DNA from: an uncultured Ignavibacteriaceae bacterium
GTDB taxonomy: Bacteria > Bacteroidota > Ignavibacteria > Ignavibacteriales > Ignavibacteriaceae
DNA length: 64,000 nt
NCBI GenBank assembly: GCA_963714775.1
Contig: CAVQQN010000030.1
Location: forward strand, 50,553-114,552
Direction: 5' to 3'
Part shown: one piece after another, positions 2,252 to 34,217 of the stretch
Numbering within the stretch: position 1 is the first letter of the stretch
Layout of the letters: each line of letters starts with the position of its first letter
Program-made: the position numbers and the translations under genes
Notes under the pieces: generated by a model
Told to the model about the DNA's origin: nothing
Database searches by the model: none
What the model saw: only the letters and a program-made list of their open reading frames with translations

Positions 2252-2254
2252 TAA

Positions 2255-4395: not shown

Positions 4396-4578
4396 GAATG
4401 TTAATAATTTTGAATTACAAGATAGGTTTCACTTTGTAATTAAGAAAGAATTGATACAAAAAAAATGATTACTTGATTGGATTAGATTTACAATGGGAAT
4501 ATTGGGAAACAATAAGTATCAATTATAAATGATATAGCTACTTATCAAAAAATTACCTATTCTAAATGTTAGTACTGA

Positions 4579-5686
4579 TTATTTAGATCTTTGAAAAATA
4601 TTTTGGCTTGAATTCTTATCAAAGAAATAAACACAAGTTGGGTCAATGTATAATTTAATTTTTTCGCCTGATTTCAATTCCTTTGATGGATTTACCCGCC
4701 CAATAAATTGAACTTTTTCTATTTCAAAATAAATGAATGTTTCATTGCCCATTGGTTCAACTACATCAGTTAAAGCCTCAATTTCGATTGCGTTATTATT
4801 ATTTCTTTCTAATCTAATATCTTCGGGTCTTATTCCTAGTATGATTTCTTTATTTGAATGGTCTTTTAATCGATCTATGTGTTCGGCAGATAAATTAAAA
4901 CTTAATTTTCCGTTTATACTACTAAGTTTATTAACATCATTTACACTCACATCAATAAAATTCATAGCAGGACTTCCAATAAATCCGGCAACAAATTGAT
5001 TAATAGGTTTATTATATAGATTCAGTGGAGTATCAACCTGATTTATTATACCATCTTTCATAATCAACTATTCTATCACCCATCGTCATCGCTTCAGTTT
5101 GATCGTGCGTAACATATATCATTGTTGCCTCGAGCTGTCTGATGAAGTTTTGAAATTTCTGTCCGCATCTGCACCCTTAATTTAGCATCAAGATTACTTA
5201 GAGGTTCATCAAATAAAAATACTTTCGGTTTACGCACGATTGCTCTGCCAACAGCGACTCTTTGCCTTTGTCCTCCGGATAATGCTTTAGGTTTTCGATC
5301 GAGTAATTTTTCCAAATCTAAAATTTTTGCAGCTTCATTCACCCTTTTCTTGATTTCTTCTTTACTGAACTTTCTTTAATTTTAGTCCAAACGCCATATT
5401 TTCATAAACAGTCATATGGGGATACAAGTGCATAGTTTTGAAATACCATTGCAATGTCGCGATCTTTGGGAGGAATATTATTGACAAGTTTATCATCGAT
5501 ATAAATTTGACCTTCAGTTATCTCTTCCAGTCCCGCGATCATTCTTAAGTGTAGTTGATTTACCACACCCGGATGGACCAACCAGTACAACAAATTCTTT
5601 ATCTTAATTGTAAGATTAACATCACTTACAACTTTTAATTTGTTATCATAGACTTTGGATACGTTTCTTAATTCAACAACTGCCAT
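4579..5686 (-). pseudogene. Sugar ABC transporter ATP-binding protein (MalK/UgpC/MsmX type), reading frame broken at least 3 times
   Basis: The gene is in three pieces: 5402-5686 (N-terminus), 5094-5342 ([32 protein letters not shown], signature plus Walker B) and 4579-5067 (MalK-type C-terminal regulatory domain). Walker A (GPSGCGKST) is readable only after correcting 1-nt indels near 5547 and 5605. Confidence 0.8.
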
Positions 5687-5699
5687 AATGAACCTTCTT

Positions 5700-8262
5700 T
5701 AATATTTATTTGAATTTTATTGAATAATGATTTCTCTTTAGATCTAGAAATATGCTTTAGATTCAATTCAAATATATTATTTCTCTTTAATTCGGTAATC
5801 CCGTTATTAATATAATTTCCATTTATGGAGAATACTTTGATTTGCAAATGGAGATAATAATTTTAAATTCAATTAAATGATCCTTTAAAAGATTCAAGAT
5901 CAAATTCAAGTGTTTTTGTTTTAAAATTGTACATTGGGGAAATTACTAATGCATTAGCTGAATTAATATAAGGTATTTCCGATATCACCTAACCTTAAGT
6001 CAATTTCTGCTTAAACTTTTTATGTCATCCGGTACAATAGCAGATGGAATTTCTTTTCCATCATAAATATATTGAGGATAATGCACTACCCTTCCCCGTA
6101 ATATCAACATTTACGAGAACTCCCTTGATTGTAACCGTTAATTGTACAGAATCCATTTCTTCCGGGAGAAAAGGACTAAAAGAAATATTCCATTCATTTT
6201 CTCTTGAGCCCAAATAAATTATACAAAGTATAAAAGTACCATCCACCGGCCCATAAGAATTGTGGTTTATCAATCTTTCCATAAAGAGCTGGATTATTTT
6301 TATCACTTATCCTGTACTCATACAAAGCTGGTTGACCATTTGGACTATTCATAATTCCATTCAAAGTCATTGTTGTTTTAATAAATTTAAATGCCTCATC
6401 ATTTAATCCATTACTGATTAATGAAAGGGCGTACCAGGAATTTCCGTGCGGCCAGATACCACCATTAGCATAATGATAAGGTTCGCCTGCTTCATTTCCG
6501 GCAAACTTCATATAATCAATCAGCAGATGCAGATCCATTGGATATAAAGTGTAGATGCCCAGTTTTTCATCTAATAATTTTTCTTTTGCTGTTAGTAATC
6601 AACTTTATATTTTTATCAGTATCCAGCAAATTAAAATGTGAGGCCAGCAGGGAACCCATATAAATATGCTCATCTTCTGTTCCATCTTCAAAATAACTTA
6701 TCAGGTAATTAAGTTTATTATCCCAAAGAGTATCGACTAATTTTCTATTCATTCGATTAGCAAGATCATCATTCAACTTTATTCCATTTAAATCTTTTTG
6801 AAGTAAAGTTGAGATGTAGTTAAACTCTCTTAACGCGCGTATTGCAAGGATTGTCATATAAGCCCGCGGTCCAAAATTATTTCCAATGTCCCACCAGTCG
6901 GGTCTGAACGACCACATTAAATCGTCTGCACCTTTATTCTTCATGGCTGTGTTAATGCTCTTCTGGATATAAGGATAAAGCTGATTTAAAAACTTAATAT
7001 CACCTGAGTGCCGGAGATAACGTGCACACACAAGAGTAAACCAAAAATGATTCCAGTTTTCTGTCCCGGCAAATTCAGTTTTATATGCGGTGTCTTTCCA
7101 GTAGTATGCATGTGGAATTGTTTTATCAGTATCGGCTAAACTGATAATGAATTTAAAATCATTTTTGACTCTATTCAGATCAAAATTCACTGCAGCTAAA
7201 TCAGTAAGCAAAGCATCGTGTGTAAAATAAAAATTGTACTCTGCTTGAGCAGGCATTGGAACAATTTGTCCATTTAGATAATGTGCATTTGTTGTTAGTA
7301 CTGCTTTCGACCATCGTGAAGTAAAATCAATATCATAATTACCAGTAAAGATTTCATTTTTCACTTAATGATTCTTTTAAAATGAAATTTTCATATTCAT
7401 CAACTTCTTTTTGATAATTTTTTAAAAGGTATTCAGTCTTTGCTTTCCCTTCTGAAATCAATGACGATCCAACAATCTGAATAATTTTAAATGAATCCTT
7501 TGGCTCTAATGTTTTTTTATAGATGTAAGCAGCAACTGGTTCACTAAATTTCTCTTTTGGAATTATTTTTCCTGGAAGAGATTCATCAGTGTTCAACCAC
7601 CAATCATCAAGATTTGTAAATTTGTTATTCATTTACTTTTTTAGTTGTAAAACTTGAAGGTTTCAATCCTGCATTCATTATAAATACTTGTGCATTACCT
7701 GTTTCGTAAATGGATAGTTTGTTCTGATTATTGATCCATCATCTTCAAAATCTGTGTATGCACTATCAATAATTTTATAAGTGTGACTTGTTCGAAGCGT
7801 TGTTTCTAATCTTGTATAAACTTCATATTCTTTTTCATGTATCTGATGTATTAGTTATTTCATAAGTAATAACCATTGCTGGTTCATTCTTACAAAACTC
7901 ATATTTGATTTTTATTTCACTGTCAGAATCATTCCCATTAAAGGAAACAGAGTATGGTGTTTGAGAAACTTTATAAATTTGATTCTTCAGAAATCTTTTT
8001 GGTGAATCACCAACCTTTAATCCCAAGAGACATTATTCTAAAGTTTTCACGTTTCCAGTAATCCTCACTAATATCAATACTGTTTGCAACCGGATAATAA
8101 AAACTTATTCGATTTAATAAAGGAAAACTTTTATGAATTTCAATTCCAACATAAGGACTTCCAACTTCTATCTGGCCAACTTCTTTTGTGCTTTCAATTG
8201 TTAATAAATTTTTACCTTGCCCATTAATTCTGAATGTAATTAATATAGATTAGATAATAACG
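5700..8262 (-). pseudogene. (alpha/alpha)6-barrel glycoside hydrolase-like protein (GDE_C/GH15/GH63-type fold), heavily frameshifted
   Basis: Colinear pieces are 7835-8026, 7354-7632, 6567-7364, 6194-6538 and 6061-6306, plus readable beta-sandwich tail fragments down to ~5700. Motifs include ANGGIWPHGNSWYALSL and FLWAGGWYFYTLY. The start position is uncertain. Confidence 0.5.
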
Positions 8263-8308
8263 ATTGACAGAATATTTTAATTTCAGATTAAGTTTCTTTA
8301 TAAACTTT

Positions 8309-11300
8309 TTACATTTCAAGTAACGTCATTTTTTTTGTATCTGAAAAATTATCAGAACTGAATTTTAAAAAATAGATTCCGGAATTGACCACTGATCTCC
8401 AAAATCGTTTTTACCATTCCAGCTTATCGAATAATTACCCGGATATTTTTCTTGATTAACTAGTGTTCTGATTTTTTGACCAAGTATATTATATATCTCA
8501 AGTTTTATAATAGATTGATTTGGAACTTGAAATTCAATATTAGTCTGACTGTTGAATGGGTTGGGATAATTTTGCTTTAATCCAAAACTTTTTGGTAGTT
8601 TATCTCTTGTTCTTCTTTAACATCACTACAAAATCATATAAGAGATTGAATACTGCTGTAGGATAAAGCATAATTGTAGATTCTAATATCATCCAAAACA
8701 CCTTTAAAATTATATTGAGTATTGTCTGGAAGCACTTGTCCGATCATTAAATCAATCGTAGTTGTCTGTATCAATCCAGAGAAAGAAGTAAATGCATCTA
8801 ATTCACCATTAATATAAATTTCATAATCACCTCCATTGTAAAGTACAGTAACATTGTAAAGATTGTTCAGGATCAATCTCAGTTTCTGAATCAAGATCTT
8901 TTGTTCCATCATTAGTTTTGACAGTCCATCTTATATGTTTATTTGTAATTGAAATTTTCCATCGATTCTCCCAATTACCATGAGAAAGAGGATAAGCTTC
9001 CCTATCAAAAAACTCTCCGACCTTTATCCAGAAATTAATTGTAACACTATTCTGAAAATTTAAACTTGAACTGCTCAAAACTCTTATATTATCATTAATT
9101 CCATCAAAAGAATACGCACTTGCTGTATTACCCCATCGGTCTGAAACAAGAGTAGCACCCGAGACTGTTCCATTATTATTAAACCCACTTGCATCATTTG
9201 CATTACCATTAAAAGGATAAAAAGCTACAAGATCCCCTGTTTGCTGAATTGTTGTATCACGGACTGATACACCGATACTATCAATTACCTCTCCTCCACG
9301 ACCATCATTAACTGCACAGATTATGTAGTAGTTGCCTGAGAGGAAGGTGCTGTCCAGGTGATAGTTGCTCCGCTTCCAGATATATGTACCAATAATTGCT
9401 GACCAGTTATAATTTAATGATGTCTCCATCCGGATCTGTTGCGCACAATTAATTTCGGATTCAGAACCAAGATGAATTTTTCTTGGATTAGCATTCATTT
9501 TGTTAATTATCGGATCATTATTTATATATTCAACCGCTTCAATAAACTAATTGAATCAGAAATTGTTCCACCTTGATTATCACTTACATTACATTTAACC
9601 AAATATGTTCCGGGAGATGATGGTGCCAGCCAAGTTAATTGTTGATCCTGTTCCGGAAAATACTTCCACCTGATACCGACCATTCATAAGTTAACGGATC
9701 ATTATCTTTATCAACTGCGGTACAATAAATTTTCGCGGAATCACCTAATGACAACTAGTTTGCTTATCTGATGAAAGTGATTTTATTCTTGGAGGATAAT
9801 TAGTGCAACTGTTTGACCTGACAGATAATCGATTATAACCCCATTAACAGAAGCTTTTTCAAGATCATATAGTGATTGTACTTCCGGTTGGAATAATCAC
9901 TGCTATTACTGCCTGCATCTGCAGGAATTACAATTGATGTTTCACCCGTTACGGCTGAATTTATTAATTGTATTTGATACAGCATCGTAAATATCACTTG
10001 ACTGCATTGCCAACATCTATAGCTACTGATTTTTCAGATGGATAAGGATTGTAATATAGAAAACTTGGAAAAGCGTCTTTATGGAAATAATCTGTCTTAA
10101 GTAAATCTAATTTTAATATCATTGAAATATTTGTTGTATCAATTATTCCTCCAAATATTCCAACGTGTGATGATCCATAAAGTGCAAGATTAGTCATTCC
10201 CCAACCACCACTAATCGCATCACCGGTTGCATAAGGACTCATAGCAAATTGTGTTTGACGAAGTGCTTCGTGTCCGATATATGAATTTGGATCATACTGA
10301 TGTGCCCATTCTTCACAATCCTGATTTTGATCAGGAAGATAGTTTGTATAAAATAATCGTGACGCAGTTAGCAGCATTTAAAACCCATTTACCAATTGCA
10401 CGAGCAAATCGATCATCGTATCGAACCATTGGAACTAATGCACCAACCTGTTCAAATGTATTCATAAGAAAAGCATAATCATTCGAACCATTTACTTCAC
10501 CAATTAATCCATCAACATCATAACCTCCCCACGTTCCAAGTATTGCGCCCCAATCTCTAAGTGGATCCAACATCAAAACACCAATTAATCATTTTATCTA
10601 AATTGTATGTTGTACCGAGTTCAGCATTCATTCTTGCAGCTGCATAAGCACCATAAGGTAATTGAATTCGTAAGAAGGATTTGTAAGTAAGTGAATTAAG
10701 AAATTCCATACACCATTCAGCACCAATTCTGTATTTCTTCATTTCCTGTTTCTAAATATGCATTGTAAAGTATCCAGGCAATTGCACCTGCAGCTTCAGG
10801 TTCAACAACACCGAATGAAATGGCACCATTGTCATAAGATTAAATGCTCTGTAATTCATGTATGGAACTTTGCCAGGGAGTTGTACTGCCTCCCATTACT
10901 TCAACAGCTCCTAGCCATCGATCAGCAATATAATGTAAACTGATTTTGAAAATCACCTGTAGTTGGATACTGATCATACAATTGGTAGAAAAAAACATTT
11001 GGCATTACATCATACCACCAATCATCCCAGTTACTTCCGTTTGGATGATTGAGATAAACATTTGCATTATTTTCTTTATTAAAATATTCTTCACACATTA
11101 AAACCCAATTATATCCATTCTGATTGCTCTTATCGATACCGACCAATGAAGCTCCGATGGTTGCCGGTAAAAGATTTATACTTTCTGACAGAAGATGGTG
11201 AAGTAGTTCCAACTACAGTGTGAAGACCAAAGCTATTATGTTCAGGATAATTAATTGTGTTATTGTTTAACCATATCAGCGGAAGATATTGTCCCTGTAC

Positions 11301-11495
11301 GATTCAAATCAAAAACTAAACTATCATAACCAGCAGCTAACATTTTTCCAGTCTCTCATTTCATAAGGAGTTGGAATATTCGGCATTTGTTCGATGCGAT
11401 TAATATTAATTTGCTGTGCATCAATCTTCACAAATGAGAATAAAAACATTAAAATGATGCTTATTTGAAATTTATATAAACTAATCTTTAATCAT
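8309..11495 (-). pseudogene. Secreted multidomain glycan-active/binding protein: N-terminal toroid-like region, Ig/PKD-like region, LamG (concanavalin-like) domain, T9SS C-terminal sorting domain; frameshifted
   Basis: The signal peptide ..ISIILMFLFSFVKIDAQQ lies near 11450. The LamG domain occupies 8634-9498 (FYPFNGNANDASGFNNNGT...LDDIRIYNYALS). The CTD QNYPNPFNSQTNIEFQVPN...GIYFLKFSS..KKMTLLEM reads on the minus strand at 8309-8590. There are at least 8 frame breaks. Confidence 0.6.
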
Positions 11496-11525
11496 ATTTA
11501 CTCCTTGATTTCGAGATATCACATT

Positions 11526-12498
11526 TTACCACGCATAATACTGTGGTGACGTTCCAGCAGGTGGAAATATTTTATCCAATTTAGACAGCAATTCCTTATC
11601 AAAATTAATTTCTAAAGATCTTGATTAGATTCATCTAATTGTTGAACAGTACGAGGACCAATTATTGGTGCTGTAACACCAGGTTGATTTAATAACCATG
11701 CAAGTGCAGTGTTTGCGGGATCTTCACCTATCTCATCACAAAAGTTTTCCCACTTGTTCTATTTGTCTGATGATTATTTTTCAGTTTATTTATAATTTCA
11801 TCTGTTGCTCTTCGTCCTTTATCTAATTTTTTTAATACTCCGCCAAGTAATCCGCCTTCAAGAGGACTCCAGGGAATTATTCCGACTCCATAATAATTAC
11901 AAGCCGGAATCATTTCACGCTCGATAAAACGATTAAAGAGATTGTATTTACTTTGTTCGCTAATTAATCCAAGAAGATTTCTTCTTCGGGCTTCCTCACA
12001 AGCTGTTGCAATATCCCAACCTGCAAAGTTGCTGCTTCCTACATAAATAATTTTTCCTTCATTAATTAATTGTTCCATCGCCTGCCATATTTCATCCCAG
12101 GGTGTGTCACTATGGACATGATGCATCTGATATAAATCAATATGATCAGTCTTCATTCTTTTCAAACTATCTTCACATGCTTTTTTAATATGATAAGCTG
12201 AAAGATATCTTTCATTAACCCAGTTACCCATCTCACCATAGACTTTTGTTGCTAGAACAATTTTATCTCTTCTTTCTTTATTTTCCTCCAGCCATTTGCC
12301 AATAATTTTTTCAGTTATTCCCGCTCCCATTTTACCACCATAAACATTCGCGGTATCAAAAAAATTTATACCAAGTTCTAATGCACGATTCATTATTTCA
12401 TAACTATCTTTTTCAGGTGTGATGGCTCCAAAATTCATTGTTCCCAGACAAAGTCTGCTAACTAATAATCCGCTTCTTCCTAATTTTGAATATTGCAT
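11526..12498 (-). pseudogene. Aldo/keto reductase, C-terminal part frameshifted
   Basis: The N-terminus MQYSKLGRSGLLVSRLCLGTMNFG matches the AKR family. HIDLYQMHH is also present. The tail ...LDKIFPPAGTSPQYYAW is readable in another frame down to the stop at 11526. Confidence 0.75.
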
Positions 12499-12526
12499 TG
12501 TTATTCCTTTATTCTAAAATCTTTTA

Positions 12527-15053
12527 TTAATGCAAATAGTCATTCAAAGTGTAAATTTTAAAATCAGATACTTTAAATGATTTTGATTTTCTTTCATCAA
12601 TTTTCAATTCAATTTGTTCATCCCGGTAATAAGAAAAATCCTCTGTCAGAAAAAGTTAAGTTCGGATAATATATATCAATGAAAAAGACCGGGTTCTTGG
12701 ACTTTATTAACAAGTAAGTGAATTCTTTTTTATTGATTACTTTAATCTTCAACTGAGGTTTTTCTAATGTTATATGCTTCCAGGGTTTGAGTGTATAGTA
12801 GTTTTTGCAGACCGTATTATCATGATTCATCAAGCAAGAACTGCTAGTTAGAATCCAATTATTATTTGCTGGTAATTCTTTTAATCAAGATCGAACTTAT
12901 TTCTGCAATAGTGCGATTACTCTTTATATTTACTTTTTGATTTTGTTCGCTTACTATCTTCCCAGAATTAGAATCAATAATTGTAATCTTTAATTTTCCA
13001 TTAATACTCAAATGATTCTGATTAAGTAAATTTATTTTGATCTGTATTCCATCATTCTTAAAATAAATTAATTGTGGTGCAAAAGAATTCTTTACAAAAT
13101 GATAAGATATTTTGGGTTTGATATCTGAATCCACAATTGCCCAGCTAGAAACAGGCCAGCAATCATTTATCTGCCAGATGATGCTGCCATTTGTTCTTCC
13201 GTTTGTTCTCCAATATTCAAGACAAGTTTTTAATGCAAACCCTTGATTTAATTGGGCTAAGTATAAATAATCATTCCACTCAGATTTGATTGGTAGATGA
13301 CCACTTAAAAATTTAATTATTCTTTCAGGTCCTTCTACTTGTTTGTTGTGATGTTCAAATATTTGATTACTAATATTTCTGTTTTTGATTGGTAAATATT
13401 TTTCAAAAGTATCTTTATTTGCTGGACCTTGAAAACCAAACTCAGTTACAAAAAGACTTTTATCATTTACTACTTCTGTATAATCAATCCATCTGCTCCA
13501 AATATTCCACTGATGTGTGTTGCCACTTTCAAATGAATTCGGATCGTCATCATTTCCAAAAGGAGAAGAAGGCCAATAGGACGCGATAGGATCAATCTCT
13601 TTTAAAATATCCGGTATTACTTTATGATAAATATTATATCCCGGCATTTTTTTATAAGATGTTTTTTGTTCCTGATGCCAGATCCATTCGTTTTCATTAT
13701 TGCCGCACCAAATTGCAAGACAAGCATGATGTTGAAGACGCAAAACATTTTGTGTTACTTCTTCACTTACATTTGCTATAAAATCATCATTCTCAGGATA
13801 GGAGCCGCAAGCAAACATAAAATCCTGCCAAACTAGTAATCCTAATTCATCACAGAAGTCATAGAATTCATCATCTTCATAAACTCCACCGCCCCAAACT
13901 CTTACAATATTCATATTGGCTTGCTTTGCTAATGATAAGTAGTTCTGAATACTTTTTTCTTATTTACTCTTGGAAGGAATGAATCAGCAGGAATCCAGTT
14001 TACTCCTTTGCTATAAATATCTTTGTTGTTTACTCGAAATTTAAAAGTTGCATTCTTCTTTTTCTTTTAAAATTAATTCAATATTTCTAATACCAACATT
14101 TTTTTGAATTTCATCAAGAACACATCATTTTCATTAACTAGTTTAACATTTAATAAGTACAATTCTGTTCACCTTCTCTGTTAGGCCACCACAATTTGGT
14201 TCTTTAATCTTAAATTCGAATTTTAGTATTCTTTGAAGATGAAGTGAGAGGAATTTTTTGTTCATAAAACACTATTTCCATATAGCCAAAGATACGATCG
14301 AGTGTAAATCTTTCTTTATTGAATAGTTTACGTTAATACTTACTTCAACTTCTGCAGTTTTTTTATTAAGCTGATTGGTATTAAAAGTTACATTTTCAAT
14401 TTTTGCATCTGACCATTCCTCTAAATAAACATTACGCCAAATCCCTGATGTTGGAAATGATGGTCCCCAATCCCAGCCAAATGAATATTGTGCTTTTCTG
14501 TATATAAACTCGGTAGAGTTTAGGGCAACAGGAAGTTTGCCATATTTTTTTTCTTCATCAGCAGCATATCTTGTAGGAGATTTAATAATAACCTTTAATT
14601 CATTCTCCTATAGCTTTCAAAATATTTTTAACGTTATATCTGTATTTAACAAACATATTATCTGTACCACCCAGTTTTATATCATTCAAATATATTTCAC
14701 TAATCGTATCCAAGCCTTCAAAAACAAGGTCAACATTATTTTCTGAATCACCTTTAAAATCAAATTTAGTTTGATACACCCAATCACATTCAGGTATCCA
14801 ATCCCATCTTTAGTTCATTATCTGAATAAAATGGATCATCAATAAGTTTATTATTTAGCAGGTCGGTGTGAATTGTTCCGGGAACAGTAGCGGAAAACTT
14901 TTTTACTGAATTGATCTTTTTATTAATTCGATAGCATCTATTGAATAAGAGGACTCCGCTAATGAGAATGTCCAGTTCCTATTTAACTTATGCTTCACAA
15001 CCACTTTCTTCACCTTTGTTTGATTTACTATTAATGCTATGTGTAGTAGACAT
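12527..15053 (-). pseudogene. GH2 beta-mannosidase, frameshifted
   Basis: The 350-aa core 12862-13914 reads NIVRVWGGGVYEDDEFYDFCDELGLLVWQDFMFACGSYP...AIWCGNNENEW. The N-terminus (..ATVPGTIHTDLLNNKLIDDPFYSDNE) lies near 14850-15053. The tail ..FKIYTLNDYLH ends at 12527. Confidence 0.75.
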
Positions 15054-15099
15054 TAAAACTTTTCCGAATAAAAAAAAATCACTTCAATTTTAGAGAACA

Positions 15100-16380: not shown

Positions 16381-16383
16381 TTT

Positions 16384-17286: not shown

Positions 17287-17311
17287 CTACTCCACCTTTA
17301 ATTTATATTTT

Positions 17312-18765: not shown

Positions 18766-18816
18766 TTTATTATATCATTTGTTTATTAATCTTAAAATAT
18801 CTAACCGGTTTATTCC

Positions 18817-20492: not shown

Positions 20493-20499
20493 TTTATAA

Positions 20500-21800: not shown

Positions 21801-21828
21801 CAGATTTTATTCCCAGCTTGCCCAATCA

Positions 21829-23334
21829 TTATCTATTGAAGGAAATGCTGGTCTTGGAATCAGATTTCCCCTCTTTAACAATATACATATCAATAGCATT
21901 TTTATCATTTTCAGATGATACTTTAATATTATCAAGTACATCTTTATTTATTGTAACTTTATATTTTTTTTTCAATTCAAGAATTTTATGAAGAATCGTT
22001 TTTGATAGTTTTTCACTTAAAAGTTCTGATTGAGATTTACTTTTTGCATCAACTAATTTTATTTCTTCAGAATTTAATGTAATTGAGTTTGCTAATTCGA
22101 TTTCTATAAGCACTATACGATATTTTATCTTTCCACCACTTAGATTGTTTAATAACCCAATTGCTTTTGTCATATCCTTTTTGAATCGCATGCTTAGTTA
22201 ATCAATTTATCTCTAACCATAAGCCAAACTAAATCTTCCAAGGATTTTGAGAACCCAGATCAAATCATCTTTTATAAACTTAATGTATTGCTCACGATTC
22301 CTGATACCAAATAATAAATTCATCTAATGAAGAAATATTCTTTGTTTTACATTCAACTAAAGTTAATCCTGGATATTTATCACTACGTTTTAATCCTAGA
22401 TTGGATAGTGCAACATCCAGTTTGTTATCTAACTCCCATTCAGAATATTTTTCAAGAGTAAGGACAATTTTTCCCAGATACGATCTGAAGAATATTAAAT
22501 GCATCACGTTTTATAATGGGATTTTCATTTGCAAAAAGACGGTTTACATACTGATCCGATAAAATATCCATCTTACTTTTTGTAATAGCTTAATCTGATT
22601 CATACTTAAGTTTTTCTATTCCGTTTCGATTTGAAATCAAATTTTCCAAATATTATCAATTTTAATTATGTACCATCCATCATCGGTATGAATTGGAGAC
22701 GATATACTTCCTGTTTTAAAGTATCAAGAATTTGTGCGAAGACAGGATTTTTTATATAGATATTGTACAAACTACTTTTCAGTCTGTCTGTCATCAACAA
22801 AAACAGAATCATTTAATTGCGTATAAAATAGTGAATCAAATGAAATAGAATTTTGTAACTGTTTGAGATATTTTTCAATGGACCGTTGGTTTTCTGAATA
22901 TACCCATCTGATCTTATATTCAATATGTTTCTTTTCTATAATTTTTTCTATTTCAGTTTCATTTATTTCTACTTTTGGTAATATTTCTTTTTGAATAATT
23001 CTTCGGCCGCTAAATCTGATTCAATATCATTAAAAACTCCCTTTGGATAATCCTTGCTCAATAATTTTCTTATCATACCTATCCAGTGCAAGAAGCTTTT
23101 CATTTATCATATATTTTAGGTGAGTTAGTCTTTAGAATTGTTTTTTCTTTTGGGAAATGCAGGTCCAAATTCATAACTGTAAAAAATTCTTCTGCCGTAA
23201 TTTTTAGAGTGTCCAATTTCTGCAACAATTTCATCTTTTTTAACTTATTTTGGTTATCTTTCAAAGAACAGATCCTGTGAGATAGTCTGATTGGTTAGAC
23301 TTAATAAAAATAATATAAGTAGAATTGTTTTCAA
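21829..23334 (-). pseudogene. SurA/PpiD-like parvulin-type peptidyl-prolyl isomerase (periplasmic chaperone), frameshifted
   Basis: My own minus-strand translation gives the signal peptide (TTG)KTILLILFLLSLTNQTISQ at 23334. A parvulin signature ..SSPIHTDDGWYIIKIDNIW.. lies near 22660-22720. The C-terminal pieces are 22292-22507 and 21829-22191. Confidence 0.55.
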
Positions 23335-23380
23335 TTATATTTCAAGAGAATTTTGAGAAAATATTTTTAAGACAGAACAA

Positions 23381-24436
23381 TTAAAATTTTATTCCTAATG
23401 AAAAATTGTGAACATTTTTTAAGCTCCCGAAATCCCTATAAGCATAATCAAAATTAACTTCTGCTGTACTCAAAAGCATATTGGAATTTACTCCTGCGCC
23501 AAAAGATAACCCGCCTTCAGCATCTTGCAGAAATAATGAATTATATCCGCCTCTCATACAATATATAATCTAATAATGAAAATTCAGCACCAACATTTAA
23601 ACTCTGGTAATCATTATTCGGTACTAAAGCATCAGCAGAAACTGTTAGTTTATAATCATCGTAATTAAATGCCTGGGTTGAAACCCCTATCTGAAAGTGA
23701 AGAGGCAGATCCCACGAATCCAATTCAATGTTAACAGGATATTTTCATTAGAGCCCTGCTTGGTTTCATCTACACGAATAAAATATCTTGCATCTCTGCC
23801 TTCAAGACGCATGTCTGTTCCGAAGTTTGATATCACCGCACCTATAGTCATTCCACCCAGAAATCTGTTTTGAATAGTGTTCCGGCATCAATTGCAAAAG
23901 CAGATGCGGTCATATGCCAGATAGATTGTTTTATATACTTTGCAGTTATTCCAACAGAAAATCTATCTGTTAGGTGTTTCGCATATGAAATACCAATCGC
24001 AATATCTCGGCACTAAAATTTTCGCCTGTTCCATCCGGTTGTTCAACCGTTCTTACTTTCATATCATCCATTGAAAGAGAAGTAAAACTAAAACCAAAAT
24101 TTCCAAAATCTCCTAACGGAATAATTAATCCTGCATAATCAAATTTTGTATCAGCTATCCAATCCAGTATGCACAAGTATTACTTCATACTTGATTAAGT
24201 TTGCAATTCCTCCTACATTCCAGTATAATGCTGAAGCATCATTTACCAAGACCAACAAATGCACCACCCATTGCATTAGCAGGAGCACCAACTCCAATTT
24301 CTAAAAAAGATGCAGCAGTTGTGCCAGTCTTTGAAACGTTTTGAGAATAGAAACTATGATTCCCAAAAAGAAAAACCAGAATAAATAAAAATATTTTTGA
24401 GCGAGTTATAATATTCAACATAACATCCTCTTGCAA
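23381..24436 (-). pseudogene. PorV/PorQ-family outer-membrane beta-barrel (T9SS shuttle-like paralogue), frameshifted
   Basis: The N-terminus reads MLNIITRSKIFLFILVFLFG..SQNVSKTGTTAASFLEIGVGAPANAMGGAFVGLGKDASALYWN. The C-terminus ..DYAYRDFGSLKNVHNFSLGIKF ends in an aromatic residue and is readable to the stop at 23381. The middle pieces are 23970-24176 and 23541-23723. Confidence 0.6.
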
Positions 24437-24459
24437 AAAATTTAAGCTTTTGAATTTTA

Positions 24460-27400
24460 TTATTTTATCACCGCAAACTTTCCTATTTTTTCACCAATAC
24501 CTGGTGCATCTACATGAAAAACATAAACTCCATAAGCTATATCCATTCCATCTTTAGAAACAAGATCCCAGCTTTCCTGTCCATCAGAAATTGTACTGGA
24601 GTGTTCAATTGTATCAACAAGTTTTCCACTAATAGTGTAAATATTTATTGTACATTCACTCGGCAGATGCATAAAATATATTCGTCTTTCGCCTCTTCCC
24701 ACTTCAGTTGAGGCTGGTTCCCACGATGCTGCACCAACATATGGATTAGGTACAACTGAAATATTATCCAATCGGACGTTAGCTTTGAATTTATCAAAAC
24801 TCTGACCTTTTAATGTAAACTCATAAAACTCACCTTTTCTAAATGGTTTTTTATTAACAACTTTAAATACATCCCCAACTTGAGGAGGCTTCTGATCTGC
24901 TTCAGCAATTGTAGTATCTTTAATTAAAGTAACAGACCAGCTTACATGCAGATTTGAAAAATTGGTGGCTGTTTTACCGAGTGAATCACCAAATACAAAA
25001 AATATTGCATCACCTTCATTAAATATTTTGATCCGTATTGGCATCACGAAAGATGAACTGAAAATGATCGTTCCCTCTGTAAGATTGTTTACAATTATAT
25101 TGGATTGAATTGGTTGACTAAAACCAGTAGCAGGAAATGATAAATCCCCTGCCCGGGTTCAGTAAATCTAATTTCAAAATCAGCAGGATAATCAATTTTT
25201 TTTCCGATATATGCTGCCTGATATCTTGAATCAAAACCAACCTGAACTATATAATTACTGCTTCCTGTAACCCAGCCGGTCTTCTCAAAATCAATCGTTA
25301 CTACAGTATCACTTTCAATATCAAAGTGAAATCCATCAATTACTGGAGTTTGATCTTCAACTCCACTTACTGTTTGCAAATTCAATAAAGTATCATCTTC
25401 TAAAACATTATATAATGAATATTCAGGATGTGCAGAATTATGATAAGGTAAATCATCAAAAAATTCTAATCTATAAGTATTAAAATTTTTAATCGAATCC
25501 GGATTAAGTATAGTAATTGAAATATTTCCGGTACCCGGACCGCTTCCTTCAAATGATGCAACTTCCGGAGCAAGATAACCTGCGGCAGGAGCTCTTGGAG
25601 TAATAACTGCAGTATTAATATCAGTAGTTATATTTCCATTAATATCTTTTTTAAGAATTGTTGTTGTTTCTGAAGGCGGAATACCTTCAAAAACCCCTTC
25701 AATATTAGTAGTAGCAAATCCTTGATCATATGCAGCAACAGCATAATAGTATGTCTGACCATTTTGAACTGTGGTATCAATAAAAGAATGTTTTAAACCG
25801 GAATCATCACCAAGATAAAACATTGCTCCATTAACATCTATAGGATGAAGTCCTTTAATTCCATCAATTAAATCAAACTGAGCAAGCGGTAATCTGAAAA
25901 CAGGTTTACCGTAAGCATCAGTAATAATTTTATTTTCAAGAAAATTTGGTTCTGTAGATCTGTAAATTCTGTACCCTTCAAAATTTATTCTCTGATAAAA
26001 TTCATCAAAAGTTTTTTCTGCACTGATCATCCCAGTAAAGAGTTACTTTATGATCACCAGGAACTGCAGTTAAGAATTGGTTTTTCCGGCGGTTTAGCAA
26101 AACGATAATTAGCATTATAAATTTGCTGAACTGTTTTCTTTCTTCTAAAAATCATCCTGTGTTAATTCCGAAAATCATTGACATTGAAAATCTTTCCGTC
26201 TCACCTTCTTCTTCAATTTGTCCTGTGGTAGTGGAATATGTATTTCTACCATTCATACTAAAAAGATAACTTGAGAAATAATTAGCTAGATTAACTCCCA
26301 CAAGTGATTGACCATGAGGGGCAGGTAATCCTGAAAGTACACCCCAGTTTTCTTCATCATTATCCAGTTCGTAAGTATGAACAGCATAAATTTTAAATCC
26401 TGTTAAACCCAATTGATCAGATTCATCTTTATCCAGAATTCCGAAATTTGGTTCTCCCTGGTCAGGTTTTCCATTACCTTCCGTTCCATCAATATCAGGT
26501 CCGGTATAGTTATCATCATAAGGACCTATTCCATCAGTTCCAACATCATCATTAAGTGACTCACCCTCATCCCAAACTCCATTTTCATTTAAATCAAAAA
26601 AAGTTCTCCAGTTAGCATTTTCATCAGCATCCCAATGATCTTTCCAGGAATAACCATAAAAATCAAAAAATTTTGTTGTATCCTGAAAAGGATTTCTAAG
26701 AAATGGATCCAGATTAGGATCAGTAATAAAATTAACCGGATTGTTATCCCTTTTTTCATCTGTAGGACCATCCGAATCATTATCAATTCCATCATCGGGA
26801 ACACCGGGACTTTCAAGAAAAGCATATCCGGCATATCCAACCGGACTCCAATTTCCGGGGCTTCCGAATGGTACCACTGACCAGGCATATGACATATCTA
26901 ATAATTCGTTGTAATCGCCGGCATTATTTGAAGAATTATCGTGTCCACCAATTCCCCAATCAACATATTGAGCAAATAAAGTTTTGTCATAATCATAAGT
27001 GCCCATATTTGTAATTTCATAATACCAGAAGATTACATCTTCAGCTAATACCTGAGACCATTGAAAACCACGGGCTCTAACCTGCATGGCTAATCCCCCC
27101 CTTGTGGAATCATCTGCATCGGGCATAAAATTATTTCTCAGAAGATATTCCCTGTCCTCATCATCGTCAAACACAAAATAAGTTTCAACATCAGCATTAA
27201 AAATACCCTTGCCAAAAAATCCATTCCAGCTATTATCCCAGTCAACAGGTCTATCGGGCCAGGTAAGAGGCCAGGTATTTGGATCATCACTTCGTGCAGG
27301 GGAACTACTAAACTGCCCTGCATACCCTGGCAACGGCCACCAACCATACGTTACACCAGTAGAATTATCGTAGCGAGTAAACTCATAGTAATTTGATTCA

Positions 27401-27716
27401 AGAGGATGAATTAATATTTCCAGCTGGGTCATTTGCTTCGGCCTGTACAATAATAGCAACTCCATCCACATAAGTGTGATTAGTGCCTTTTGGCCAAACT
27501 CCGCTTCGGCTTGGTTCATTCTGCCAGTCTGCAATTTCACCAAAGTTGTAATAAACAGTAGCAGCAAGATTTCCATCCATGAAACCTTTTTTTGTCTGAT
27601 TGTGGTCTCCTTTGTTCTTATCAACAATCCTCTGACCAATTAGTCAGATTAGTGCTGATAATAAATGCTGCCACTACTATCGTTATAAAACTGAAACTAT
27701 TTTTTGGTATCGACAT
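24460..27716 (-). pseudogene. Large (~1080 aa) secreted Asp-rich Ca-binding protein with FlgD/T9SS-like C-terminal domain, function unknown; frameshifted
   Basis: The ATG at 27716 gives MSIPKNSFSFITIVVAAFIIS (signal-like). Thrombospondin-type-3-like loops include DDGIDNDSDGPTDE and DLNENGVWDEGESLNDDVGTDGIGPYDDNYTGPDIDGTEGNGKPDQGE. The C-terminus reads IYTISGKLVDTIEH..WDLVSKDGMDIAYGVYVFHVDAP..GKFAVIK. The pieces are 26152-27639, 25095-26030 and 24460-25047. Confidence 0.55.
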
Positions 27717-27739
27717 TTTTACTCCAATAAATAGATAAA

Positions 27740-30506
27740 CTAAAATGAAAAATCAGCACCTAGGACAATTTGTCTTGGTGATGAATAAAAATCTGGTCTT
27801 GTAAAATATTCTTTGATTGTATTTACACCTCTTGGCGCTGTCTGATTTCGAGTTAGCTCCAATGTATCTCCTGCTCTTCCCGTATCACCAAAAACATTTA
27901 ACTTCATTTAAGGTATCAAATAAATTATAATATCTTTACGAAATACTGATAATTGATTACCAGCATAATTCAAAATACTTAGTTACATAAAAATCTACAT
28001 CATAAAAAGCCGGTCTGTTATCACTGTTTTCAAGTCCTGTTCTTTGATTTTGTAAAGATGGAGTATAAGGTAATCCTGATCCAAGTCTTCCAATAAAACT
28101 TGCAATATAATCTCCCGGTACTCCAAGCGTTAAAGTAAGATTGAGTGAATGCGTTCTGTCCCAGTCTAAAGGTACCAGTTGTTTATTCGACTTCAATTGG
28201 TGGATTTGATTGCGCATTATTAAATGCTGCATTAGGATCCGAAGCACTGCCTTTTGCGATTTGAAAAGTATAATCCAATGTTGCACCAATACCATCGCAT
28301 AAATCTTTTTTCAAAAGATAAAGTTATACCTTTTACAGAACCATAATCTTTATTAATAAGTCTTACTGAATTTTTTGAATTCATTTTTAATAAATATTTC
28401 TGATGCCAGTAAATTTCTTATATCTTTATAATAACCTGTGATAGTAATTCCTAATTCATCAGTTAAAGCTTGCTGCAAACCTATTTCATACATAATGGTT
28501 TGTTGCGGTTCAAGATCTGCATTTCCAATCGTGTTGCCAATATTTTCCGGAAAATCACCGGTAAGCGGAATTCTGAAATTAGGATTACGATATAAATATT
28601 CAAATGGAGGGATCTGGAAAAAATGACCATAAGAAATATGAATTGCACCTTTATCTGATATTGGATAAGATAATCCAATGCGTGGACTTATTTGAGATTT
28701 AGGTTTAGCTGCTTACTAACAATGAGTCTGGAAATGGAGGTTGAAGTTCATCTAAAAGATTAATCTTATTTGGATCTTTTAAATATGTACCATCAGGTTC
28801 GAAATAATCATATCTTAGACCAACATTAACTATTAAATAATCAATTTCAATTTTATCCTGAACGTAATATGCAATGAAGACTGATAATGGGATTGATATG
28901 CTTGATATGTATTAAAGTTAAAAGCACCGGCTTGACTGGTATCTTTGGTTTAAAGTTCGAAGATGCATCAATAATTATTTGAAAATCTTCATACTTCAAA
29001 TCATGAATATGTAAAATCAAGTCCTGTTTTAATTTGGTTAATATTATCAATCTGCCAGGTAAAATCCGATTTTCCAGTAATAGCTTGTTGTAGTATGATT
29101 AAAATGCCAGTTCTCTGTACCACCAGTCAGAAATGCATTTCCGCTAACATCCTGTTTTCTGTCTGGATTAACATACGATACCGGAGATAGGCTCTCCTGC
29201 AGTGTTGTAATACGCATAATGTCAAATGGATCTTCAAAAACATATTGTTTAAACTCTGATCTGCAGACCTGACAAAGAAAAATCTATAAACGCCGAATTA
29301 CTCAATAACAAAGTATAACTTGCTATACCTAAAAAACTTTTTTGATACTTTTTATAATCACCATCAGGATTTAGTCTATAAATATGATCATAATCTCTGT
29401 ATTTATTATCCTGATAAAGACCTGATAGTACAAACCTTTACCGCCGCCAACATTTAATGCTAGCTTTACCTTGTAAGGATAATCTTTCTATTAAAGTTCA
29501 TTGGTACATATGCTTTATCACCCGTAGATCCGACATACCAGTCTGCAGAATTATTTGCAGAAAAATTTGATGAATCTGAGGGATTAAAAATTCTTTGACC
29601 ATATATAGCACCGTCATCATAGTTATATCTTCCGGATAAGAAAAATTTTAGCAAAATTTTCGATTCCAGGAATCGGACCGCTAAAATTACCCTGTATCAT
29701 TATAAACATTGGCAGGACTTACATGATCTATATTCGTAAAGATACTCGTTATGCGAACTGACATAATCACCTAGAATAAAAAGAAATATTCCCATCTAAT
29801 TTATCACCAGCTATTTTTGTTACCTGATTTACAACTCCTGAAAGGCTTCTCCATATTCAGCATTGAATGTTCCGGTTAGCACCTGAACTTCTTCAATACT
29901 ATTAACTTCTGCTGATAAGTGATGATTGACCTGAGTAAACATCATTAACAGCAACACCATCGATCAAGATATTTAACTTCATTACTTCTTCCGCCTCTAA
30001 AGTGTCCATCAACAACACCAGCTTGTAGATTTACAACAGCAGAAACATCTTCAAGAGGAAGCATTGAAATATTATCACCACTTATTGTTTCTTCTGTAGA
30101 TGTAAGATCTTTTCTAACTAAAAGTTTTTCAGCAGTAACAACAACATCAGCTAATTCAATTGATTCCGGATCTTAATTCAAAATCAAATTTTGTTGTTTG
30201 ATCTACTGGAAACTCTTACTTTCTGAATTGTAAATGATGAATATCCAATCATTGATGCTTTTACTTGATATTCACCTGGAGGAATATTTAGTATAAAATA
30301 ATTTCCATCTATATCTGCAGAAGCTCCAAGTGTAGTACCGAGAATAATTATATTAGCTCCTAATAAGAGCTTCACCTGTAGCTCTTATCAATTATTTTAC
30401 CTGCAATTTTTCCTGTTGTTCCGGCATAAATCAATGTTCCCATCAGGAAGATTAATATATTGACTGAAGAAGCAAATACTTTATTACAATTAGTAATAGT
30501 GAACAT
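27740..30506 (-). pseudogene. TonB-dependent receptor with N-terminal CarboxypepD_reg domain (SusC-like architecture, no SusD partner), heavily frameshifted
   Basis: The ATG at 30506 is preceded by AGGTGGA. The sequence GKIAGKIIDK..GANIIILGTTLGASADIDGNYFILNIPPGEYQVKASMIGYSSF is followed by a plug-like VVVTAEKLLVRKDLTSTEETISGDNISMLPLEDVSAVVNLQAGVV. The C-terminus ..YSSPRQIVLGADFSF reaches the stop at 27740. Confidence 0.65.
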
Positions 30507-30609
30507 TACATCCACCTATTATTACATGAAAAGAAAATTTATTTAATATCACACTTACTAAAAAATAAAGGGCGCTAAAATATTAGCACCCGTTAGAATA
30601 GAGCTTACT

Positions 30610-33172
30610 TTAAGCAGTAATCATTTTTTTGGTCATGATGAAAATTACCAGCTGTCTAATCTGATAGAAATATAGTTCCGCTTGAAACTTTATTGCCATA
30701 ATTGTTATCACCATTCCACTGTACTTATAATTCCAGTATTCTGTTCGCTGTTAATCAAAGTTTTAACTTCACGTCCTAGAATATCATAAATCTTTAAAGA
30801 AACAAATGAAACTATTTGGTATTGAGTAACTGATCATGGTACTTGGATTAAAAGGATTTGGATAATTCTGGAGATAAATTATGATTACTGGTCGGAATTC
30901 ATTCTCAACACTATATCAGTTACTCCATTTTTCTTTATCTTCTAACTAATCCATATAAACTGTACCCTGGAATCTTCCCAACGGATGTAATCTTACTGAA
31001 ATTGATATTGCGTCTCACCTGTTCCGGTACAACTACATCAACATAAAACTGTGTCCAGTCAAATGATGTTGCATTAGGAAATCCAATGGAATATCGACTT
31101 GCCAGCATACTGTCCCCAGCCTTCATTGTTGCCAATTGTGTTATGGAATATTGGAGTTATTGCTACACTCCATGCATCACCTACTGCTACTACTGAATCA
31201 GGTTCCAGGTTCATTCCTTTTATCCATACACTTATTCTTAGATATATCTCCAGGCAACTAACATCCGGCTTAGTATGCATATTTTCTAGTACCAACAAAT
31301 CCATCACGTCGTACCCTACAGGTATGTCAAATTTCAATGAATAGTTTCCATTATATGCTTCTTCATCTGTTATCTCTAGTGTTTTCATATCCTGCATTTA
31401 ACACTCCATCATTTCCTCCAATTGGGGGCAACCAGTAAAACCAGCCTGTCGGTACTCCTACCTGTGTGTTCCAATCCTGTCCTAACCAGCCTCTCGCGTC
31501 CGTTCAGTACAAATATCATCTGCCCATACTGTTCCTGTTGCATCTTTTCCGCCTACAAATCTGATTATTGTTTTCCAGGAATCTTCCGGTAAGACTTATT
31601 TCACCTACTGCTTGTTGTATCTGCTACCCAGCCTGTTGTGCTTGCTACACTTTGATCTAATTCGAATTTCTTCTCACCTATTAACGCTTCCATTCTCTCT
31701 ATAGAATGAATAACTTACATACCATTTCTGATCTTCCGTTGTCGGGTTTGTGTTTACTCCTGATGTCATATAGTACATTCCCATATTCTATATCTACATT
31801 CTCAAAATGTTTCTCAGACCACAAATCACACATATTCTCTGACTCCCACATTGCTGCTTCTGATGTTGCTGTCTTTGTTATCTTCAGTGATTTGCCCATT
31901 GAACGAGACTCATCTGTTGCCCAGCTTAATGTTGATCCGATTGGTTCTGCTCCCTTTGTCCAGTATGATGGCAATGCTTGTTCGAAACTGCCTATCTCAC
32001 TTATTGTTGGAATATCTAACTTTTCTACTGTTAGATCATCCATATAAACAGTTCCCTGAGAATCTTCCTAAAGGATGTAATCTTACTGAAATGATATTGC
32101 AGTTTCACCAACGCGGATCCGGTACGTACATCTACATAAAACTGTGTCCAGTCAAATATGTTGCATTAGGAAATTTCAATGGAATATCGACTTGCCCATA
32201 CTCGTCCCCAGCCTTCATTGTTGCCAATTGTTTATGGAATATTGGGGTTATTGCTACACTCCATGCATCACCTACTGCTGCTGCTGAATCAGGTTCCAGG
32301 TTCATTCCTTTTATCCATACACTTATTCTCAATACATCACCCGGTATAGCCTTAACAGGTTCATATTTTCTTGTTCCAACAAATCCATCATGTGAACCTA
32401 CAGGTATATCAAATTTTAATGAATAATTTCCGTTATGAGCATATTCATCAGTTACAATAGTGTTTTCATATCCCTGATTTAACACTCCATCATTTCCTCC
32501 GATTGGCGGCAACCAGTAGAACCATCCTGTCGGTACACCTAACTGTGTATTCCAATCCTGCCCTGCCCAGCCGTCTCTGCCTACAAATAAATAATCATCT
32601 GTCCATACTGTTCCTGTTGCATCTTTTCCGCCTACAAACCTGATTATTGTTGTCCAGGAATCTTCTGGTAAGACTATTTCACCTATGAATGTTGTATCTG
32701 CTACCCAGCCCGTTGTGCTTGCTACACTTTGATCCAATTCAAACTTCTTATCTCCTATTAAGCTTCCATCCTCTCTGTAGAATGAATAACTTACATACCA
32801 TTTCTGATCATCAGTTGTCGGGTTGGTATTTACTCCCGATGTCATATAATACATTCCGAATTTTATATCTACATTCGCAAAATGTTTGTCAGACCACAAG
32901 TCACACATATTTTCTGACTCCCACATTGCTGCTTCTGAAGTTGCAGATTTTTCTATCTTCAGAGATTTTCCCATTGAACGAAACTCATCTGTTGCCCAGC
33001 TTAATGTTGAACCGATTGGTTCTGCTCCTATTGTCCAGTATGAGGGCAATGTTTGCTCGAAACTGCCGATCTCATTGATTCCACTCTGAGCCTGCACTGG
33101 AATTTGAACTATTATCAACGTGATGGCAAATAAACCTATCCACCATCGAGAAATGTTGCTAATCATATTCAT
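30610..33172 (-). pseudogene. Secreted protein with two tandem ~364-aa CBM-like (jelly-roll) repeats and a T9SS C-terminal sorting domain; repeat 1 intact, the rest frameshifted
   Basis: ORF 32132-33172 carries a signal peptide (WWIGLFAITLIIVQIPVQAQS) and repeat 1. Repeat 2 is in pieces (31699-32043, 31074-31397, 30935-31135). The CTD QNYPNPFNPST... reads on the minus strand at 30610-30870. The repeat junction reads ..GTVYMDDLTVEKLDIPTISEIGSFEQALPSYW. Confidence 0.6.
30930..33090. repeat. Two-copy tandem direct duplication, period 1092 bp, high nucleotide identity
   Basis: cttcattgttgccaattgt occurs at 31121 and 32213, an offset of 1092. Long colinear near-identical stretches run across both copies. 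The protein pair IGSFEQALPSYWTKGAEPIGSTLSWATDESRSMGKSLKI and IGSFEQTLPSYWTIGAEPIGSTLSWATDEFRSMGKSLKI matches closely. Confidence 0.9.
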
Positions 33173-33197
33173 AGCTTCTCCTTTAGATTAATTATAA

Positions 33198-34211: not shown

Positions 34212-34217
34212 ATTATT

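Follow-up and report, generated by a model that had tools for sequence, protein, structure and literature searches.

Gene content of the locus

The window analysed here is a 64,000-nt stretch of a public metagenome-assembled contig from an uncultured Ignavibacteriaceae bacterium. It holds a cluster comprising two GH130 genes, a GH2 beta-mannosidase, an ABC sugar transporter, a TonB-type receptor and T9SS-sorted proteins. An initial annotation, made from the sequence alone, had described 15 of the 16 genes of this block as cut into pieces by small indels. The fragmentation is real: the open reading frame (ORF) list is broken up only at ~4.6-32.2 kb, where multiple alignment revealed 171 indels private to the window. 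Moreover, intact ORFs of 275-1057 aa from L002, the closest syntenic reference, were each recovered by tblastn as 3-8 frame-switching pieces on the window. The genes of the block are as follows.

4579-5686, minus strand: MalK-type ABC ATPase; 6 indels (5064, 5137, 5370, 5429, 5549, 5603)
5709-8384, minus strand: six-hairpin glycosidase-like gene; L002 orthologue of 890 aa with weak GDE_C/GH94 matches; 15 frame-breaking indels
8315-11476, minus strand: LamG/PKD protein with a T9SS C-terminal sorting domain; orthologue of 1057 aa; a 1048-aa ORF once 30 indels are removed
11530-12498 (start approximate), minus strand: aldo/keto reductase; insertions at 11624 (2 nt), 11753 and 11767
12533-14992, minus strand: GH2 beta-mannosidase; an uninterrupted reading of 794 aa once 19 indels are removed
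15109-16380, minus strand: conserved protein, family unknown; orthologue of 428 aa; 5 indels; corrected ORF of 418 aa
16384-17286, minus strand: GH130 glycoside phosphorylase/hydrolase, 300 aa; the sole intact gene of the block
17324-18862, minus strand: second, longer GH130-family gene; insertions at 17414 and 18390
18813-20507, minus strand: two ABC sugar-transporter permease genes (BPD_transp_1), both frameshifted
20508-21825, minus strand: extracellular solute-binding protein gene (SBP_bac_1/8), frameshifted
21810-23280, minus strand: PpiC-type rotamase-like gene, frameshifted
23384-24481, minus strand: PorV-like gene, frameshifted
24463-27490, minus strand: conserved 1008-aa protein, no Pfam family; 1010 aa once 8 indels are removed
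27650-30515 (approximate), minus strand: TonB-dependent-receptor-like gene, heavily shredded; CarboxypepD_reg and Plug in the 900-aa L104 orthologue
30610-33172, minus strand: T9SS-sorted protein with an internal tandem duplication of ~1.08 kb; shredded in copy B and at the C-terminus, undamaged in copy A down to 32232

The GH130 gene at 16384-17286 was rightly singled out as intact by the initial annotation, and its TTG start is conserved among relatives. In the malK gene, the C-terminal part is intact (ORF 4579-5067; 3' part 4579-5063 undamaged), while the predicted disruption around Walker A was found as a 1-nt deletion at ~5603 and a 1-nt insertion at ~5549, flanking GPSGCGKST. Fragments of the block already figure in protein databases, e.g., the 350-aa fragment P0124.

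Density and distribution of private indels

Indels were called from per-gene MAFFT alignments of the window with 5-15 syntenic Ignavibacteriaceae loci per segment, and only those strictly private to the window were counted. The 171 indels found at 5064-32231 are thus a lower bound, because some indels share columns with a gap in a reference. They comprise 121 insertions and 29 deletions of 1 nt, 12 insertions and 3 deletions of 2 nt, 3 insertions of 3 nt, 2 of 4 nt and a single one of 11 nt. Single-nucleotide events therefore account for 150 of the 171, and 168 events break the frame. Overall, insertions outnumber deletions by 139 to 32 (121 to 29, i.e., ~4:1, for 1-nt events). No large deletion was found in the block relative to the syntenic loci, the largest event being 11 nt, which bears out the initial impression.

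The density reaches 6.3 indels/kb in the block versus ~0.1/kb in the flanks, a contrast of ~50-fold instead of the ~10-fold first estimated. In the same alignments, the loci of short-read relatives (L002, L006, L007, L008, L084 and JGI loci) showed 0-2 private indels each. Homopolymers are as frequent in the block as outside it, and the window contains no Ns or gap marks. The density is also uneven within the block, from 0.4/kb at 16.1-18.4 kb to 13/kb at 29-32.2 kb, with two sub-blocks standing out.

16108-18389, minus strand: low-error sub-block over the two GH130 genes; 1 event versus ~14 expected (P = 9e-6)
29001-32231, no strand: densest sub-block, 13 indels/kb, ending abruptly within the first repeat of the T9SS-sorted protein gene

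An alignment of the L111 contig to 16250-18771 showed just 3 gap openings.

Restoration of reading frames and substitution pattern

When private indels of lengths other than multiples of three were stripped, full ORFs were restored in six genes (72 indels, ~3,900 codons). This is illustrated by ORF gains from 239 to 1048 aa, from 447 to 1010 aa and from 81 to 367 aa. Not a single nonsense codon was present in these six genes. Removal of strictly private indels restored ORFs in part at 19630-20510, 20505-21830, 21805-23290 and 30550-32200. In-frame stop counts of poorly aligned segments were left out because the references had stops there as well.

The window carries 239 private substitutions versus 488 for L002, with nonsynonymous/synonymous ratios of 1.75 and 1.44, respectively. 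Their codon-position profile resembles that of L002 and follows a purifying-selection pattern; neither an excess of private substitutions nor a pattern of relaxed selection was found.

Indel spectrum and its recurrence in other long-read contigs

The composition of the inserted bases is flat (A24 C25 G29 T39) compared with a GC content of 32%. Insertions lie next to an identical base in 25 of 117 cases (21%) versus 42-45% expected at random. A simulation with planted insertions recovered 64 of 64, indicating that this avoidance of same-base neighbours is not a detection bias. Hence, of the initial description, the predominance of single-base events holds, whereas short homopolymers do not characterise the indel sites of the block: neither homopolymers nor simple repeats are enriched at them, same-base context is depleted and insertions dominate.

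Patches of the same spectrum occur in the same island of two relatives, both represented by long-read contigs with Flye-type names. In L047 (MFD05942.bin.2.261), a patch of ~8 kb within the orthologous island shows insertion-biased, non-homopolymer 1-nt events, with 22 insertions to 2 deletions and a patchy distribution; L083 (ENA contig_48021), also patchy, has 34 to 16. The insertion bias and the same-base avoidance differ from the textbook Nanopore mode of homopolymer deletions, and the match to these two contigs is an empirical one only. A model in which insertions arise from retention of both alleles at a SNP was unsupported at the three sites comparable with the Logan contig L001: one of the three insertions is near a SNP (5370, 5 nt off) and none is adjacent to one.

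Edges of the block and its flanks

The block ends at ~4999-5064 and at 32231, each time within a gene, and relatives keep synteny across both edges. The flanking features are listed below.

2050-4998, no strand: clean lower flank with the MATE gene and the malK 3' end; 100% identical to L001 (Logan, sample ERR12035932)
4999-5418, no strand: lower edge zone; SNPs relative to L001 begin at 4999; +1 insertions at 5064, 5137 and 5370
32232-36237, no strand: clean upper flank; 0 private indels in 32232-35300 versus 6-9 references
37771-37805, plus strand: background +1 frameshift in a MtaA/URO-D-like methyltransferase gene
38327-38330, minus strand: background -1 frameshift in a homocysteine S-methyltransferase domain gene
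43336-43383, plus strand: background +1 frameshift in a TonB-dependent receptor gene
54660-54700, minus strand: background +1 frameshift in the essential glnS; the canonical C-terminus resumes in the next frame

The lower edge had been placed at 4560, which is too low: the ORF at 4579-5067 is intact and identity to L001 extends up to 4998. Beyond this point, the window differs from L001 by 16 SNPs at 4999-5418 (10 at codon position 3, 8 synonymous). The block haplotype thus differs by ~4% from an otherwise identical strain, as measured in this overlap, and SNP onset falls within 65 nt of indel onset, a tie made at the lower edge only. All three window insertions (5064, 5137 and 5370) are missing from L001, whose ORF is intact (278 aa) over an overlap of only 420 nt; they were recovered independently using distant references. 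As L001 is a different haplotype within the block, these missing insertions are not strict proof for the window's own strain.

At the upper edge, the deletion at 32157 reported initially was recovered, preceded by a compensating insertion near 32180 and by the outermost event, a deletion at 32231, where the edge is now set. Further up, 33069-36237 is 100% identical to L082, a Logan contig of the same sample as L001 (ERR12035932). Outside the block, four of the breaks noted initially were borne out (37.79, 38.33, 43.34 and, in glnS, 54.68 kb). With a possible fifth at 49.67 kb, the flanks carry 4-5 frameshifts in total, mostly +1.

Exact-protein look-ups yielded near-identical contigs from the MATE and ADH genes only (L001 and L082); GH130, gltX and a further four flank genes gave none. 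Searches with a GH2 fragment and GH130, together with cluster listings, returned no relative above 96% amino acid identity; the closest contigs (L083, L084, L111 and L112) showed 83-91% nucleotide identity. No second assembly of the window's haplotype was found in the same database searches.

Origin of the fragmentation

Taken together, these results indicate that the block very probably reflects a poor local consensus within a long-read metagenome assembly and that its genes are not decaying. The cluster seems shredded because the deposited contig would carry ~170 spurious small indels, mostly +1, at 5064-32231. In the organism itself, the mannan/mannoside utilisation cluster is probably intact and ordinary. 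The initial annotation had favoured a technical origin, and it is sustained by the 1-nt, insertion-biased spectrum, by the lack of nonsense codons and of relaxed-selection substitutions in the block, by the absence of the three testable indels from L001, the only near-identical independent sequence, and by the recurrence of this spectrum in other long-read contigs but not in short-read ones. Its more specific proposal, uncorrected sequence spliced between polished sequence, holds only in part: the flanks bear frameshifts too, including the one in glnS, and for this reason the whole contig looks long-read-only. The assembly is most likely of the Nanopore-only, Flye/Medaka type.

Here a locally poor consensus seems to fall together with a tract in which strain haplotypes diverge. 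Given the ~4% divergence over the block from a co-occurring or closely related strain, low depth or a mixture of haplotypes may have produced it. Inside the tract, the consensus may derive from few reads, those of the minor haplotype alone; alternatively, it may derive from two mixed haplotypes that corrupted read alignment. The flanks, common to both strains, would have been covered at full depth, which would account for sharp edges within genes.

An unlikely source is a hybrid or scaffolded assembly that bridged two accurate contigs, polished with short reads, by an unpolished long-read gap fill. It would fit the sharp edges, the 100% identity of the flanks to short Logan contigs that end near these edges (5418 and 33069) and the raw-read-like density of 13/kb near the upper end. 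However, short-read polishing normally removes frameshifts such as the 4-5 of the flanks (glnS included), there are no Ns or gap marks, and the density is mostly far below raw-read level and varies stepwise. Moreover, Nanopore-only contigs of relatives bear the same patches. Real and recent pseudogenisation, whereby the mannan-utilisation island of one strain, perhaps imported by recombination, was inactivated wholesale with GH130 kept by selection, is very improbable. In its favour, the damage hits 15 of the 16 genes in a single functional cluster but leaves GH130 and most of its paralogue untouched, selection could also explain the scarcity of indels over the two GH130 genes, the block overlies a tract whose haplotype is genuinely divergent, and the indels stand in the public deposit. 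Bacterial pseudogenes, however, show a deletion bias and a broad range of indel sizes, whereas here insertions exceed deletions 4:1, nearly all events are of 1 nt and large deletions are missing. Substitutions typically outnumber indels by ~10:1 among bacterial mutations, so that dozens of nonsense codons would be expected under decay beside the 72 frameshifts of the six restored genes, where there are none. Private substitutions are neither in excess nor relaxed, the indels avoid homopolymers, the same spectrum recurs in other long-read contigs, at positions unrelated to these, as well as in the essential glnS, and the three testable indels are missing from L001.

The indels could also be real if the 27-kb tract between recombination breakpoints in malK and the T9SS-protein gene had undergone a +1 mutational process biased towards insertions, independent of slippage and without effect on substitutions. 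To this we assign a smaller probability still than to pseudogenisation; it would amount to a localised frameshift hypermutation of a kind that, to our knowledge, has not been described in bacteria. The probability that the frameshifts are functional, through programmed ribosomal frameshifting, transcript-level correction or slippage-based phase variation, is close to nil. All that speaks for it is that the frameshifts sit in otherwise well-conserved coding sequence. The ~170 sites share no motif, none is conserved in any of the 5-15 orthologous loci, and homopolymer or repeat context is depleted at them; this lack of conservation and motif effectively refutes it. There are also several sites per gene, and we know of no recoding system that tolerates this.

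The biological interest of the block is small and its practical interest moderate: in a public contig, 15 of 16 genes over 27 kb are liable to be annotated as pseudogenes or split into dozens of small hypothetical proteins. The recurrence of such patches in two other long-read contigs, together with the haplotype switch observed here, suggests that it is in strain-variable tracts that the consensus of long-read metagenomes fails. The quality-control signal to watch would therefore be local indel density, not genome-wide coding density.

Comparison with known systems

As in natural gene decay, many adjoining genes are interrupted yet recognisable. The block shows none of the marks of decay as it occurs, e.g., in Mycobacterium leprae or recent host-restricted symbionts: deletion bias, wide indel sizes, nonsense mutations, relaxed dN/dS and, in many cases, IS activity.

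The closer parallel is the indel-induced fragmentation of genes in long-read assemblies, to which Watson and Warr reportedly drew attention in 2019 (Nat Biotechnol). There as here, small indels split ORFs into pieces that are still conserved protein, indel removal mends the ORFs, and the damage is absent from short-read assemblies of relatives. Such fragmentation has been documented for Nanopore and PacBio CLR assemblies and depends on coverage (proovframe preprint, 10.1101/2021.08.23.457338; Kastor, PMC12007338; Sereika et al. 2022, PMC9262707); for R10.4 assemblies, ~40x coverage is needed for a near-finished consensus (PMC9262707). In contrast, the classic damage consists of homopolymer deletions spread genome-wide, whereas the block shows +1 insertions unlike their neighbours, concentrated ~50-fold in one sharp-edged 27-kb patch.

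The collapse of divergent haplotypes introduces indel errors where alleles differ, via read misalignment (Cosentino et al. 2021, PMC8445201), and here indel onset falls within 65 nt of the onset of ~4% SNP divergence. That case concerns a diploid eukaryote, whereas the present one would involve co-occurring bacterial strains in a metagenome, with the link seen at one edge only. Finally, the Microflora Danica (MFD) genomes are Nanopore-only, assembled with Flye and polished by one round of Medaka, and their coding density is reduced where coverage and GC content are low (PMC12313526). One genome of this catalogue, L047, shares the insertion-biased, non-homopolymer 1-nt spectrum of the block.

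Extent of the fragmented block

Long intact ORFs lie outside ~4.6-32.2 kb of the window, and only short ORFs are found inside. Using tblastn, we found that each intact ORF of L002, the closest syntenic reference (275-1057 aa), matches 3-8 window pieces in alternating frames. The exception is the 300-aa GH130, which is intact and has a conserved TTG start. Both approaches confirm the sharp-edged, shredded block described in the initial annotation, whose edges are refined to about 4999-5064 and 32231. The lesions reported around Walker A of the MalK-type ATPase were recovered too, as a 1-nt deletion at ~5603 and a 1-nt insertion at ~5549 flanking GPSGCGKST.

Each block gene was aligned with 5-15 orthologous loci, and private indels (columns occupied or gapped in one sequence alone) were tallied per sequence. 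Between 5064 and 32231, the window carries 171 private indels, of which 150 are single-base (121 insertions, 29 deletions), 15 are two-base (12 insertions, 3 deletions) and 6 are longer. The frame is broken by 168 of them, and short-read references carry 0-2 private indels in the same alignments. As validation, insertions were planted at random in L002 and all 64 were recovered; the three insertions that the window shows against the near-identical contig L001 were also found again with distant references. The mean density is 6.3/kb in the block versus ~0.1/kb in the flanks; the proposed ten-fold contrast is therefore real, but larger than estimated. Homopolymer content is equal inside and outside the block.

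Density of window-private indels
5.0-16.1 kb: 6.9/kb
16.1-18.4 kb, the two GH130 genes: 0.4/kb (P=9e-6 under uniformity)
18.4-27.4 kb: 4.5/kb
29.0-32.2 kb: 13/kb
32,232-35,300: zero (P<1e-8)

Edges, relatives and deposited assembly

Both edges are intragenic, the lower in malK and the upper in a gene for a T9SS-sorted repeat protein. L001, a 3,366-bp Logan contig from run ERR12035932, matches the window exactly over 2050-4998 and differs by 16 substitutions over 4999-5418, where it ends; it lacks the window insertions at 5064, 5137 and 5370, and its malK frame is intact. The upper edge opens with a deletion at 32231, then a compensating insertion at ~32180 and a deletion at 32157, which terminates a 346-aa ORF. 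Window 33069-36237 is matched without a difference by L082, which also comes from ERR12035932.

With the GH130 gene as query, 80 related loci were retrieved, nearly all from Ignavibacteriales or Ignavibacteriaceae MAGs, and 9 of these are collinear with window ~5.3-27.5 kb (72-87% nucleotide identity). Searching again with the 346-aa ORF gave loci collinear with 21-35.3 kb. Since the edges fall inside genes and relatives are collinear across both, they are not island boundaries. One block fragment, a 350-aa ORF (12865-13914), occurs verbatim in a public protein collection, from a 219,807-bp contig (NCBI and ENA), indicating that the lesions belong to the deposited assembly.

Gene content of the island differs among relatives: the aldo/keto reductase (11420-12534) is missing from L002, and a 767-aa GT4 glycosyltransferase is inserted between the permease and GH130 genes of another relative (L111, 6201-8504). 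The T9SS-sorted protein gene (30970-33080) contains a ~1.08 kb tandem duplication with copies 84-97% identical; its copy number is variable, with two copies also in relatives' loci L104 and L086 and one in L087 and L085. Elsewhere in the window, which is of Ignavibacteriaceae-like origin and low in GC (~32%), two large ORFs were observed.

50465-52825: 786-aa hybrid sensor kinase (HisKA and HATPase_c), with receiver domain matches in three stretches
57442-62160: 1572-aa ORF carrying a C-terminal T9SS sorting domain and weakly matching G8; surrounding GC raised to 0.39-0.45, versus 0.32 for the window

Origin of the indels

The block is a long-read consensus artefact and not a biological feature. 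The technical reading preferred in the initial annotation is supported by the indel spectrum, by ORF restoration and by recurrence in long-read contigs. Real decay of the block genes, the alternative, is very improbable. When only frame-breaking private indels (length not a multiple of three) were excised, six genes regained full ORFs (1048, 794, 418, 271, 367 and 1010 aa), and no nonsense codon was present in these six (72 indels removed, ~3,900 codons). After frame correction, lineage-private substitutions at conserved sites number 239 in the window, fewer than the 488 in L002; their nonsynonymous/synonymous ratios are 1.75 and 1.44, respectively, with similar codon-position profiles. Ten of the 16 substitutions that separate the window from L001 fall at codon position 3; eight are synonymous and the others conservative. 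This pattern is typical of purifying selection and thus reflects real strain divergence rather than noise.

Bacterial pseudogenes carry deletion-biased, size-diverse indels. The block shows the opposite spectrum, with one-base insertions exceeding deletions 121:29 (P=7e-15) and no large deletions in alignments with orthologous loci. Inserted bases are flat in composition (A24 C25 G29 T39, in a 32% GC context) and avoid matching their neighbour (21% vs 42-45% expected, P=2e-6), which together exclude slippage. Functional recoding as an explanation of the frameshifts is even more improbable than decay.

The artefact's spectrum recurs, at other positions, in two relatives' contigs with Flye-style names. 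In L047 (MAG MFD05942.bin.2.261), 22 one-base insertions and 2 deletions are restricted to a ~8 kb patch of the orthologous island (~4168-12202, window-equivalent 15322-23143), and the neighbouring 6.7 and 4.1 kb are free of private indels. L083 (ENA ERZ25039513, contig_48021) carries 34 insertions against 16 deletions, at ~10 private indels/kb over 12107-17897 (window-equivalent 5.8-11.4 kb) and ~1.5/kb elsewhere; its island is shredded throughout, and the flanking TrmO and YdjC genes are also fragmented. Across the window, L047 and L083, 21-27% of the inserted bases match either neighbour, where 42-45% is expected, and their GC content exceeds that of the genome. The MFD MAGs were built from Nanopore reads alone, by Flye --meta assembly and a single Medaka polishing round; according to their authors, coding density is lowered in MAGs of low coverage and low GC (PMC12313526). 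Near-finished consensus from R10.4 assemblies needs ~40x coverage (PMC9262707).

Of the five breaks previously noted outside the block, four are true frameshifts, sparse and similar in type to those of the block (three +1, one -1); that at ~49.67 kb was unconfirmed.

Frameshifts in flank genes otherwise intact
37771-37805 (37.79 kb)
38327-38330 (38.33 kb)
43336-43383 (43.34 kb)
54660-54700 (54.68 kb), essential glnS; the canonical C-terminus resumes in the next frame

These frameshifts, including that in glnS, argue for a contig built from long reads alone, and against a raw insert set between flanks polished with short reads.

Location of the patch and comparison with known cases

At the lower edge, where SNP and indel onset were compared, divergence from L001 begins 65 nt before the first indel, and the flanks are 100% identical to the same-run contigs. 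The simplest model suggested by these observations is that the sample or samples held two haplotypes, ~4% apart over the block tract and identical outside. Within it, the consensus would draw either on a small number of reads from one haplotype or on misaligned reads of both, while outside all reads would agree; in the near-clean 16.1-18.4 kb sub-block, the haplotypes may coincide or depth may be higher. Indel errors from collapsing divergent alleles are documented (PMC8445201).

The block is of value as a quality-control warning and otherwise of little interest. It is an instance of a known problem of long-read assemblies, the fragmentation of genes by indels (10.1101/2021.08.23.457338; PMC12007338; PMC9262707), here unusually localised and biased towards insertions.
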